From positions 17,174,001 through 17,238,000 of the forward strand of contig CM022669.1 in NCBI GenBank assembly GCA_012295275.1: 64,000 bases of DNA. Reading direction: 5' to 3'. This DNA is from Chrysomallon squamiferum (lineage: Eukaryota > Animalia > Mollusca). A program made the translations under genes and the position numbers. This document shows positions 17,024 to 28,112 of the stretch, piece by piece (within the stretch, counting starts at the first letter, position 1; every line of letters begins with the position of its first letter). The notes below the pieces were generated by a model. The model saw only the letters and a list, made by a program, of their open reading frames with translations. It was not told where the DNA came from and made no database searches.

Positions 17024-17129
17024 CCAATGTAAAATATTTTATGTCCATACAAGTGTGCATATAAATATGCAGGACTGCAGTTATATTATCACTGTGTATT
17101 GAACAGAATTCAATAACAAGGTTGAAAAG
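17024..17129 (+). promoter_or_regulatory. Peptide gene A core promoter and non-coding exon 1
   Basis: CCAAT 17024-17028, TATAAATA 17060-17067, Inr-like TCACT 17089-17093 (~30 nt after TATA), exon ending AAAAG|GTAAGA at 17129/17130. Clearly homologous to the blocks at 20543-20647 and 28010-28112. Confidence 0.82.
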
Positions 17130-18188
17130 GTAAGAATGAATTTATTGTATATTTTAAACCGAATTTTATACGTTTAAGAAATTTTAATGTTATACTAATT
17201 TTATGAGCTTTAATAGGTTAACCAAAACAATGAAATAGTAAAAACAATTTTATCAGACAATTTATTTCTGCCTATTTGTTTTTAAAATAGCAGTAATAAA
17301 AAAATGTTCAAGTTCAGTATTGAATTTTACTATAATTAATATATAAATAGTTTACTCTGCTTTTTATTCATTTATTGTATGTGTGTGTGTGTGTGTGTGT
17401 GTGTGTGTGTGTGTGTGTGTGTGCGTGTGTCTGTTGGTGTGTGTTTTCATTGAGAATATCAATATATTAAACCATTTCTTTTTTCTTTGGATCAAGCCAA
17501 TCTTTTTTTTTCTTCTTTTTTTTTTCTAATTTTTTTATGTTTTTGATCCTATAATCCTTTATTCTCTATTTTTGTTCAGTGTATTAAGCTATTCCTATTT
17601 TTTCTTCGGATGAAGTCAATTATGTCTTCTCTCTTCTTTTTTTTTCTCTTTTTTACTTCGTTTGTTTTTTTGTTTTTTTTTTTTTTTTTTTTTTTTTTTG
17701 TGTGTGTGTGTTTTTATTGTTGTTTTTGGTAAGTTTTAATTTTTATGGGTTTTTTGTTTGTTTTTTTATCTTATTATTCTTGATTCTAATTTTTGTTTCA
17801 TTATATCAGGATGCTGAACTATTCCTAGTTTTGTTCGAATGAAGGCTACTCGTGTTTTGGTTGTTCTAATTTTTTTTATTTCAATATATCAGAACATTAA
17901 ACTTCAGATGAAATATATTTTTTTATTCGTTGTTGTTAACCTTATTTTTATCTCTCTGATTCTTTTGTGTAATATTTCAGTACATTAAATAAAACTTTTT
18001 TTTTCCTTTATCAGATGAAAGCAATTATTTGTTTTTGTTTACATTTTCGATCCTGTCATCCTTTTTACAAAATGATTTTTTTGTGTCTTTTAATAACTTT
18101 TTTTTTATTTTTTTTTTTTTTTTTTATGTCCTATATATCATCACAATATATTAACCTATTAATTTCTCTTTTTTTCTTCTTCATTCAG

Positions 18189-18612
18189 ATGAATAAATTT
18201 TTATTGGCGTTTTTATTCCTGTCGCTTGTGGTAGCAATATCTGCGACAGCCATCAGAGCCGTTGGCGATGAAGACGATGCTAGTTTGGATGATAAATTCT
18301 TAGACCCGAAACAACTGAGAAAACTGATGAGGGAAAGAGCTAGGGTATAGAATATGACAAATAATTTTTAAAAATGTTACTATTAAATATTATTATGAGA
18401 CATAAAACAGTTTTAGCCAGTCTTTCTTTACATTTTTCTTATATATATATATATATATATATATATATATATATATATATATATATATATATATATATAA
18501 TGGTAAATTTGTGGCTAGGTAATATATGTTTCGCAAGACCAGGTTTTCAATAAAAAACATTTTTTTTTTTTTCGTGTTTCAGAAGCACTTTCTTGGCACT
18601 AATAAGAAATGA
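18189..18612 (+). CDS. Secreted peptide precursor A, 61 aa (coding exons 18189-18344 and 18583-18612)
   Basis: CAG|ATG acceptor, phase-0 donor GTATAG at 18345, TTTCAG acceptor at 18582. Product MNKFLLAFLFLSLVVAISATAIRAVGDEDDASLDDKFLDPKQLRKLMRERAR|KHFLGTNKK*. AATAAA at 18709-18714. Same architecture as paralogs B and C. Confidence 0.83.
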
Positions 18613-19009
18613 GAACTTGGAAGAATTTCTACACCCAGTTAAACAGACAGACAGACAACTGAAAGACAAAAGTCCAAAGGAAATTCGTGTTTAACATTTA
18701 TGAAGTGAAATAAAGATCTAGCTTCACGTGTTTTTCTTGCTCTTTCTGTATTTTCTTTTGATTTTCGTGTATGTCTGTATATATGTATGTATGTATGTGC
18801 GTATGTGTATTTGTGTGTATGTGTGTGTGTACGAGGGTAAACGTGGGGGGATATATATTACACACCTGTATTATAATCATTTCATAGCATATCATATTAC
18901 ATATCATTACTTATTGTTAATTTCCTTCTGTTTCCTAACATGACATAGACAAAATTAATAAATATAAGAAATGTACTAAGTGACCTCGCAAATGAAATAA
19001 AAGTTTTAA

Positions 19010-26002: not shown

Positions 26003-26826
26003 TCAGTCATCCCCAAATTTTTTCTGAAAGAACGAAAATTTACATAGTTATTAAAAACAAAACAATACTCAGACATACGTATAATTATATCTTAATAGCT
26101 GTGAACATTTTAACTAAAACTTAATCAGAAAGAAAGGGAAGAATTAATTATTGAATAGATATTTATTAACATTCTATTAATTGCTTTCTCCTGAGGGAGC
26201 CTGAGAGATGGTCAGACACACGATCGGGTGCCAGTGGTGCAGCATTCAATTAAAAGGCCAAAGGTCGTCGTATTAACTCCATTTTGTTGTTGTTCCCATT
26301 GAGCCATTTCTCGTTCCAACCAGTGCTCCATAAACATGTATAACAAAAGCCGAGGTATGTACTGTTATAACTGAGCTTATAAAAGATTCACTGTCGCTAA
26401 TCGGAAATGGCAGATCATGAAATAAGGGACAGGGCTTCTCGTAGCAGTCATTAACCAACGATAAATCAGCATCCATAAAATCGTAAACAGAATGTGTTGA
26501 GAGATATTTTCTTTCAGTGCTCTCGTCATTTAGTAACATACTGAGTCAACTTCCCTCAGGAGTAACTAATTTCTGATGTAGCTGCAGATTAAAACTGTGA
26601 GGTACGCGCGTTTAATATAAAATATTTATTCTTTTTCCTTTGCTTTTCCTACAATGCTTACCCCCATTCTTTCTCTCATCATCTTTCTCAGTTTTTCCAT
26701 GTCGAAGAAGCCGAATTTGTCATCGAAGTCCTTGTCGTCACCACTTTCGTTGGAGTCGTTGTCTGCAACTACAGCAACAGCCACCAACAGTGACAGGACC
26801 AAAAACGTCAACAGAAATTTGTTCAT
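26003..26826 (-). CDS. Secreted peptide precursor C, 61 aa (coding exons 26826-26662 and 26023-26003)
   Basis: TTCAG|ATG acceptor, donor GGG|GTAAGC at 26661, TTTCAG acceptor at 26024. Product MNKFLLTFLVLSLLVAVAVVADNDSNESGDDKDFDDKFGFFDMEKLRKMMRERMG|KKFGDD*. AATAAA on minus at 25897-25892. Confidence 0.87.
26228..26510 (+). mobile_element. SINE with Nin/Deu-like core in intron 2 of peptide gene C (antisense to the gene)
   Basis: 'cccattgagccatttctcgttccaaccagtgctcca...ataacaaaagccgaggtatgtact...ataaaagattc..tcgctaatcggaaa' matches, from recall, the conserved core of molluscan tRNA-derived Nin-domain SINEs. Degenerate tRNA-like head 'cagtggtgcagc'. Further partial copies at about 15745-15815, 44765-44815 and 61115-61205. 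Confidence 0.65.
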
Positions 26827-28009
26827 CTGAAGAAAAAATAGATATATAGCTTAATTTATATACTGCGATATACTGAGCAACAAAAAGTTAGAAACGATCA
26901 GAAAGAAATAAAAGCGTTTCTATGGGGAAAAACAGAACGCTTATAGTGTATGATATACTGACGTACAGAATGACAAGAAGAAGAAATAAAACACAATAAA
27001 AAACGTTAACAAAAATCTCTTTATCTGAAGGAAAGAAAGCTAAATACGTAGTAGAAACAAGGCAAACAAACATAATAATAAGAAGAAGAAGAAGAAGAAG
27101 AAGAAGAAAGAAAGAAAGAAAAAAGAAAGAAAGAAGTAAAAAGACAGGATCAGAAAGTCAACAAAAATCGCTTCAACTGAAGAAAAGAATAAGAAATAGT
27201 TTAATACACTAATTATAATGAACTAAAATTTGACGGGTTAAAAAAAAAAAAGAAAGAAAGAAACGTTAAGAAAAGTCTCTTCATATAAAGAAGAAAAAAG
27301 ATGAATTGTTTAATATATCGATACACTAAAAACAAATCAGTAAGGCTATTAATGCAACATTCTTTTCACTTGTGATGCTACTAAAAGATTTTTAGAACAA
27401 ATTAAAAAATTGGGCAATCTTCAAACTCTTTTCTTATCAAAAATTTAAACTTAGTGAATATAAGTATCAATGGGTTAACTAACTGCAAACCTACATAAAG
27501 GAAAATTAGTATGTATACAATTAGGCAGAGCAGAATTAAGTATAAATAAGTAAGTAAATTAGTAAGCAAGTATATTAAGTAAATAAGTAAGATAGTAACT
27601 AAGTAAGTTAAGTAAGTAAATAAGTAAATAAATAAGTAATTATTCTAATTTATTTAATGCGAAGTTGATAATTAACAGTAATAAACACACGTTCAGTGTA
27701 TTTCGAGCAATAACAAATGCATTTAATGACGTCACAATGACATTAAAATAGAAAAAACTATATTCTGTCTTTCTTACACTTCAGGTCAAATTAAATTTGG
27801 GAATCAGTGTAATAGATAAAACATAACTAAGAAACATAAAATTAAAAAAAAAAAAAAAAAAAAAAAAAAAAAAAAAAAAAAAAAAAAAAAATGAAAAAAA
27901 AAAAATAATAAAAATTGTTGTAACCAAACCTAAACTTTAAGCGTAGCAAAAGTCAATCAAAAAAAAAAAAAAAAAAAAAAAAAAATAATAATAATAAATT
28001 TGTTCTTAC

Positions 28010-28112
28010 CTTTTTAGCCGGCTATTGAAGTTTGTTCAATATACAGTGATAATACGTGTAATACTACGCATTTATATACACACAAGTCAAAAGTGAAAGA
28101 CGTTTTCATTGG
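28010..28112 (-). promoter_or_regulatory. Peptide gene C core promoter and non-coding exon 1
   Basis: On the minus strand: CCAAT 28112-28108, TATATAAA 28078-28071, TCACT 28049-28045, exon 'actgtatattgaacaaacttcaatagccggctaaaaag' then GTAAGA at 28009. Confidence 0.85.

Follow-up and report, generated by a model that had tools for sequence, protein, structure and literature searches.

Three paralogous three-exon genes, here called A, B and C, were found next to one another in a window of 64,000 nucleotides (nt) from Chrysomallon squamiferum, the scaly-foot snail (GenBank assembly GCA_012295275.1, contig CM022669.1, positions 17,174,001 to 17,238,000). Judged from sequence, the trio is a real family, apparently undescribed and restricted to its lineage, whose products are small helical peptides predicted to be secreted. 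The genes are intact, constrained and duplicated, and their regulatory and export parts, namely the promoter, the 3' untranslated region (UTR) and the signal, are more conserved than the mature cargo.

Three intact paralogous genes

Both strands of the window were read and the coordinates were tested by script. GT-AG borders were found at all six introns of the trio, exactly at the junctions of the original prediction, and the common architecture it had proposed (CCAAT, TATA and TCACT motifs, a non-coding exon 1, an exon 2 opening at AG|ATG, a phase-0 second intron and AATAAA) is present in all three genes. Introns 1 and 2 measure 1059 and 238 nt in A, 742 and 411 nt in B, and 1183 and 638 nt in C. 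No ATG occurs in exon 1 of any gene, a single AATAAA was found per gene within the 3' region scanned, and the spacing from TATA to TCACT is 29 nt in A and 27 nt in both B and C. We take TCACT to be an initiator, and the start sites given here follow from this motif. The coding sequence is divided between exons 2 and 3 as 52+9 codons in A, 58+3 in B and 55+6 in C. All three precursors have 61 residues despite these unequal shares, which may be chance or may reflect a limit on the length of the mature peptide.

The promoter, exon 1 and 3' UTR gave local DNA scores that were equalled by none of 200 shuffles in nine of nine pairwise comparisons, so that the 3' UTR, already described as conserved, is so in every pair; between B and C it reaches 86% identity over about 50 nt. 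Pairwise scores of exon 2 were equalled by three of 200 shuffles for A-B and by none of 200 for each of the other pairs. Four of the six intron pairs were at shuffle level, with the score reached in 7-29 of 30 shuffles. Both A-C intron pairs scored above shuffles (0/30 and 1/30), the DNA there being poly-T-rich.

The A and C precursors are identical at 30 of 61 residues and their mature parts align with z=5.3 (0/500 shuffles). The mature part of B does not align significantly with that of A (z=1.1; 71/500 shuffles) or C (z=0.2; 201/500), and the kinship of gene B with the other two therefore rests on the promoter, exon 1, signal and UTR. The helical ending that had been described as shared by the trio is significant between A and C only; even so, each of the three has a Lys/Met-rich helix that comes after a Lys-Phe and an Asp(-Pro) cap. 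Over the 18 codons of the A-C signal there are six first-, no second- and eight third-position differences, giving 0.13 nonsynonymous (dN) and 1.65 synonymous (dS) substitutions per site, and over the 16 codons of the helix dN is 0.29 and dS 0.39, all from small counts. Over all blocks dS between A and C is near 1, and still the frames and promoters of all three genes and the six splice sites are intact.

A filter for signal-like exons (an AG|ATG exon with 45-70 open codons, in which the start is basic and hydrophobic and the rest polar), defined after the genes had been seen, matched these three loci only on both strands of the window, and no locus in 40 block shuffles. Gene C was matched twice through a second possible GT donor 9 nt past the main exon-2 donor (26653-26662, minus strand), the use of which would add three residues in frame. 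No fourth copy was found in the window by tblastn and blastn; a weak match near 23.6 kb was rejected as a further copy, being without any gene feature when read.

In the DNA run X1, one 1974-nt contig spans exons 2 and 3 of gene C and differs from the window at 33 letters in about 1400. None of its 11 listed indels falls in either exon. Exon 3 with its UTR, where about three of the 40 listed substitutions were expected, has none of them (P about 0.03, post hoc); these substitutions end before exon 2 and do not cover it. The coordinates of the trio are collected in Table 1.

Table 1. Promoters and exons of the three genes, in window positions.
Feature	Position	Strand	Details
Gene A promoter	17024..17093	+	CCAAT 17024, TATAAA 17060, TCACT initiator-like motif 17089; conserved among paralogues
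Gene A exon 1, non-coding	17090..17129	+	5' end inferred from initiator-like motif; donor GTAAG
Gene A exon 2	18189..18344	+	52 codons; residues 1-21 signal-like, then an acidic spacer and a basic helix
Gene A exon 3	18583..18714 (to about 18720)	+	9 codons, stop 18610-18612, 3' UTR, AATAAA 18709-18714
Gene B promoter	20543..20612	+	CCAAT 20543, TATAAA 20581, TCACT 20608
Gene B exon 1, non-coding	20609..20647	+	
Gene B exon 2	21390..21563	+	58 codons; residues 1-23/24 signal-like, then two predicted helices with a break at Asp-Pro
Gene B exon 3	21975..22114 (to about 22120)	+	3 codons, stop 21984-21986, 3' UTR, AATAAA 22109-22114
Gene C promoter	28045..28112	-	CCAAT 28112-28108, TATAAA 28076-28071, TCACT 28049-28045
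Gene C exon 1, non-coding	28010..28048	-	
Gene C exon 2	26662..26826	-	55 codons; residues 1-21 signal-like, then an acidic spacer and a helix whose final Gly precedes exon-3 Lys-Lys
Gene C exon 3	25892..26023 (to about 25890)	-	6 codons, stop 26005-26003, 3' UTR, AATAAA 25897-25892

Two repeated stretches were observed around gene B. A 19-nt tandem repeat of 4.5 copies (20274-20359) lies about 200 nt upstream of its CCAAT and is possibly a B-specific enhancer; it repeats ACGTCA, which we take to be a half site like that of the cAMP response element. A duplicated stretch of about 80 nt with TGACGTCA, noticed by eye in intron 2 of B (about 21690-21775) and again downstream of the gene (22765-22850), is possibly a small mobile element. 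A repeat scan of 18000-33000 returned microsatellites, the 19-nt tandem repeat and the similarity between the B and C promoters.

Precursor layout and the search for relatives

Each precursor opens with the hydrophobic signal-like N-terminus that had been described: position 2 or 3 is basic, the hydrophobic stretch has 16-18 residues and the best 9-residue Kyte-Doolittle mean is 3.1-3.3. Small residues at -3/-1 (A-X-A-type ends, seen by eye in all three) fit a predicted cleavage after residue 21 in A and C and after 23 or 24 in B. There is no Cys after the signal in any of the three, and the Asp/Glu-rich spacer of A and C is borne out by charge: residues 22-37 carry -4 in A and -6 in C, followed from residue 38 to the end by +7 and +2 respectively, which makes both bipartite. 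The product of gene B is near neutral throughout (-1, +2), lacks the acidic spacer and is not bipartite. The dibasic sites of A and C sit inside or after the helix, never before it, and include Arg-Lys and Lys-Lys close to the C-terminus of A and Gly-Lys-Lys in C; B has no dibasic site, and RxxR occurs in none of the three.

The AlphaFold2 model of C exon 2 has helices at residues 3-25, 32-37 and 43-54 and is of low confidence, with a mean predicted local distance difference test score (pLDDT) of 71 and a predicted template modelling score (pTM) of 0.33. For the mature part of B, modelled from the single sequence, a helix-break-helix was predicted with the break at Asp-Pro (mean pLDDT 85, pTM 0.38).

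Searches for relatives returned no confident match to a characterised family. Nothing reached the family cut-off in Pfam, the best hit being DUF4179 (E 0.007; 17 bits against 30 required). By sequence, no PDB entry matched C at E<=10, and a three-sequence profile gave three PDB matches at E 0.6-1.6 only. A word search among the proteins of near length in a collection of 5.8 billion found no homologue of C exon 2, and the three-sequence alignment, run over the same range, gave six candidates, none with E<=1. Foldseek gave no match with the low-confidence model of C as the query. An Atlas search had a best score of 0.77 for A and nothing for the mature part of B, and gave no homologue. Among JGI metagenome contigs no match to the exon-1 pattern was found, and of 599 pattern matches none was confirmed.

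Only a hidden Markov model (HMM) search of 1.84 billion representatives gave low E values, with four matches (E 3e-6 to 4e-4) in proteins of 182-580 residues from JGI/ENA. Two of these contain EF-hands and two FHA domains. We rejected them as homologues and regard them as motif convergence, since they are long proteins that score through three to five repeats of a short D-P-capped helix, the only motif in common; the EF-hand proteins align at D-P-x-x-L-x-K-L-M repeats. To our eye C resembles the loop-exit helix of an EF-hand, with a Gly-Phe-Phe-Asp turn and then a helix ending in Met-Gly-Lys. An EF-hand origin was nevertheless rejected, as position 12 of the loop holds Lys, Gln or Met instead of Glu, position 1 is not Asp, no EF-hand was matched in Pfam or PDB at E<=10, and the resemblance had no statistical support.

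The lack of homologues in these searches and the signal-like N-termini support the original prediction of a lineage-specific, unrecognised secreted family. Proteins of the snail Gigantopelta aegis are present in the searched database, and its orthologues are therefore absent, too diverged or unannotated. The absence of the family from the searched protein collections suggests that annotation misses 61-residue, three-exon genes. Statements taken from publications, cited here by PMC or bioRxiv number, refer throughout to the accessible parts of each source. The trio may be listed among the unannotated 'novel' models of published gene sets, of which PMC7142155 counts 2415. Five peptide motifs were absent from the supplements searched of PMC11871041, and the peptide motifs were likewise absent from 12 of the 13 supplement files of PMC7142155; the sheets seen in both carry gene identifiers and not whole sequences, and these results have little weight. 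No orthologous locus was located in the scaly-foot snail expression tables, where two of three fukutin-like genes were traced, with TRIM2-like neighbours also used, and neither neighbourhood matched the window.

Candidate functions of the peptides

The best explanation, which we hold tentatively and at somewhat less than an even chance, is a lineage-restricted secreted family for host defence or the management of microbes, which may work like the arminins of Hydra or the myticalins of mussels while being a member of neither. This choice is founded on a likeness in kind to myticalins and to the clustered, charge-bipartite peptides of Hydra, and on the +7 helix of A. It is also favoured by the intact, constrained genes, by the helices predicted at residues 43-54 of C and in the mature part of B, and by the setting of the host family, the peltospirids, which live in microbe-dense vent habitats and include chemosymbiotic species (PMC7895826). 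The myticalins and modiocalins, linear cationic antimicrobial peptides of mussels, are, like the trio, a taxon-restricted multigene family of linear peptides in which a conserved frame with its signal carries variable cargo (PMC5577615). Their exon plan is matched by the trio, with three exons, a non-coding exon 1, intron 1 right before the ATG, and signal and mature peptide in exon 2. However, intron 2 of the myticalins is in phase 1 and that of all three genes here in phase 0. Myticalins also have a conserved Lys-Arg and an anionic C-terminal extension of 35-75 residues, whereas the trio has its acidic part on the N-terminal side, tails of 9, 3 and 6 residues (A, B and C) and no conserved dibasic site. 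The mature peptides in the modiocalin comparison are Pro/Arg-rich, unlike those described here (PMC5577615).

The antimicrobial peptides of Hydra are taxon-restricted, tandemly clustered and signal-bearing with bipartite charge (PMC10945409). The trio resembles the arminins and periculins in being orphan, clustered and signal-bearing (the signal by eye), and bipartite charge is found in A and C but not in B. The microbiome-shaping role of the Hydra families (PMC10945409) is proposed here as an analogy. They belong to a different phylum and showed no sequence match to the trio in the protein searches run, and the Cys pattern of most Hydra antimicrobial peptides is lacking in the trio (PMC10945409).

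If the defence reading is right, the promoter common to the trio would drive co-regulated, high and tissue-restricted transcription. The 61-residue precursor would then lose its predicted signal of 21-24 residues, and a peptide of roughly 40 residues would be secreted, likely as a short helical peptide, onto the surface of an epithelium or into the lumen of a gland. The acidic half may mask the basic helix in storage, until the peptide is cut near the Lys-Phe bond by some protease or released in seawater, and the helix predicted after the D/D-P cap could bind anionic bacterial surfaces, likely killing or restraining bacteria. Of the three, A is the likeliest to act directly on membranes; the variants B and C would be weaker or narrower in action, or synergistic, with C possibly amidated at Gly-Lys-Lys.

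Frog-skin antimicrobial peptide precursors consist of a signal, an acidic spacer, Lys-Arg and a helix. A and C follow this order of parts and Phe begins the candidate helix peptide, but the trio has no Lys-Arg before the helix, is low in hydrophobicity and gave no matching Pfam hit at E<=10. The layout of an acidic propiece and a cationic amphipathic helix in the original prediction can thus be kept in part: an acidic half is followed by a basic half in A and C, while strong charge is confined to A, amphipathicity does not exceed that of shuffles, no release site was found and B lacks the spacer.

Several observations weigh against a defence role. The segment beginning with the Phe that follows the conserved Lys carries +7 in A, +2 in C and +1 in B, leaving only A strongly cationic, and the whole mature charge is +3, +1 and -4 for A, B and C. 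The mean hydrophobicity of the same segments is low (0.07 in A, 0.13 in C and 0.25 in B on the Fauchere-Pliska scale). The best 11-residue hydrophobic moments of 0.59 (A), 0.58 (C) and 0.69 (B) were equalled by 576, 535 and 107 of 2000 shuffles respectively and do not exceed shuffles. Between the acidic part and the helix there is neither a dibasic nor an RxxR site, and in A and C an Arg-Lys pair within the helix could be cut by a convertase. The dN and dS estimates come from just 16-18 codons, a conserved signal ahead of variable cargo would suit reproductive and other secreted families just as well, and the trio is known here from genomic sequence alone. The antimicrobial reading is therefore weaker than it was first put.

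A reproductive secretion is unlikely but deserves serious weight. In this case the genes would encode abundant sperm, spermatophore or egg-coat peptides, charge-balancing packaging partners or allohormones, like sp6/FITZAP of abalone. Peltospirids make spermatophores (PMC4470333), and the rapid divergence of the mature parts agrees with such a role. FITZAP is a fast-evolving family of small (~6-kDa) precursors in gastropods, which carry a signal, a tract rich in Asp on the N-terminal side and a hydrophobic patch (PMC6952181). Its isoforms, however, are strongly anionic (-6 to -16) with poly-Asp, disordered and furin-processed, and have a coding exon 1 (PMC6952181), none of which applies to the trio, with its mature charges of +3 to -4, predicted helix, lack of RxxR and non-coding exon 1. 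By eye, the acidic tract is the sole trait that the mature FITZAP sequences share with the trio (PMC6952181, supplementary file 8). A literature search for Lymnaea accessory-gland peptides found nothing.

We hold it just as unlikely, and give it the same serious weight as a close rival of defence, that the peptides are structural or surface secretions of mucus, periostracum, sclerite or shell matrix. The Asp-rich half would bind cations, and the polar-faced helices would bundle or coat lipid and air/water interfaces, as small exchangeable apolipoproteins do. The helices of the trio are zwitterionic and polar rather than lytic, and the two predicted helices of B, broken at Asp-Pro, have moments of 0.43-0.46 and net charges of 0 and +1. 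Many shell proteins of peltospirids have signals and no known domains (PMC11871041). Against a matrix role, the trio has neither low-complexity repeats nor Cys and is not rich in Gly/Tyr, and the acidic tract is missing from B.

The comparators for control of symbionts are the NCR peptides of legumes, the BCR peptides of aphids and the coleoptericin peptides of weevils. It is rather improbable that the trio is a peltospirid-specific, Cys-free family of this kind, sent to bacteriocytes or epibiont-bearing epithelia and restraining chemosynthetic bacteria; if it were, it would be a molluscan counterpart of those peptides, and the weak charge would be a feature, serving restraint rather than lysis. 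The peltospirid family has both symbiotic and non-symbiotic members (PMC7895826; bioRxiv 10.64898/2026.10.05.756691).

Two readings fit less well than defence, reproduction or matrix. It is very doubtful that the trio encodes peptide hormone or pheromone precursors acting on G protein-coupled receptors (GPCRs). Gly-Lys-Lys in C would allow amidation and cleavage, A has its Arg-Lys and Lys-Lys near the C-terminus, and upstream, at 4 and 13 kb, there are two GPCR genes of the rhodopsin type; but such adjacency is no evidence of pairing, no Pfam family was matched, and in place of the conserved convertase sites flanking a conserved peptide that mark neuropeptide precursors, the candidate sites differ between A and C and are missing in B. 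We give equally little credence to uncleaved signal-anchor micropeptides or recently silenced copies, for which the hydrophobic stretch of 16-18 residues, the single helix over residues 3-25 in the model of C and the purely genomic record speak, and against which stand the small-residue cleavage sites, the frames, splice sites and promoters kept intact at a dS near 1, and the gene C exons without a listed indel in a contig that differs at 33 of about 1400 letters. Contigs of the RNA runs X2-X4, compared with 24300-27050, covered only repeats and neither the exons nor the junctions of gene C, which is no sign of silence; the comparison was confined to this part of the window, with A and B outside it. 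A look-up with a 9.9-kb query listed no RNA run that contains it; a small transcript could not reach the 5% threshold with a query of this length, and the result speaks neither for nor against expression.

On their defining features the three genes belong with none of the myticalins, frog-type precursors, FITZAP, EF-hands and neuropeptide precursors, and they are not homologous to arminins; by analogy, they may still work like the antimicrobial families. A defence or microbe-managing role, if true, would mean that a vent gastropod has a family of linear defence peptides encoded by genes. No description of such linear peptides was found in the vent-snail literature, with subscription papers mostly outside the scope of the search. 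The word 'antimicrobial' does not occur in the accessible parts of PMC7142155, PMC7895826 and the Peltospira preprint (bioRxiv 10.64898/2026.10.05.756691), nor 'hydrothermal' in those of a review of snail antimicrobial peptides (PMC13176007). The limits that vent snails set on bacterial partners have been explained through lectins and other immune-recognition families (PMC7895826), and three short, synthesizable peptides would make an effector hypothesis testable. The kind of system is in itself unsurprising, as clusters of orphan secreted peptides are common in invertebrates.

Neighbouring genes and repeats

The window is microsatellite-rich with 31.7% GC; published genome values are 34.5% for C. 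squamiferum and 37.5% for G. aegis (PMC7736800). The two GPCR genes consist of one open frame each, at 3176-4141 (minus strand) and 12138-13352 (plus strand), the second ending about 3.7 kb upstream of gene A, and a possible GPCR remnant lies at 4406-4690 (minus). A LicD/fukutin-related gene of one open frame occupies 35334-36383 (plus; PF04991, E 4e-22). The RING/B-box/coiled-coil frame at 57621-58754 (minus) is TRIM2-like, and among the top three of its 99 matches the identity of residues 1-160 is 92% with Gigantopelta aegis, 77% with Haliotis cracherodii and 73% with Patella. These identities point to a host that is likely a peltospirid, or a vent snail of the neomphalines close to them, and not G. 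aegis itself, and they bear out the original prediction's guess of a mollusc.

A frame of 136 residues at 49092-49502 (plus), in a low-GC region and possibly decayed, had no Pfam match at E<=0.001; by eye we take it to resemble a fragment of an FkbM-type methyltransferase. Tigger/CENP-B-like DNA-binding domains (PF04218, PF03221) at 59147-59833 (minus) probably represent a transposon-derived fragment. Finally, a short interspersed repeat of very high copy number was found at 24441-24507, where the summed contig depth of run X1 is about 58,000 in a single bin, compared with about 54 in single-copy DNA. It occurs with many different flanks and also in the RNA runs, and is likely the end of a short interspersed nuclear element (SINE) or a miniature inverted-repeat transposable element (MITE).

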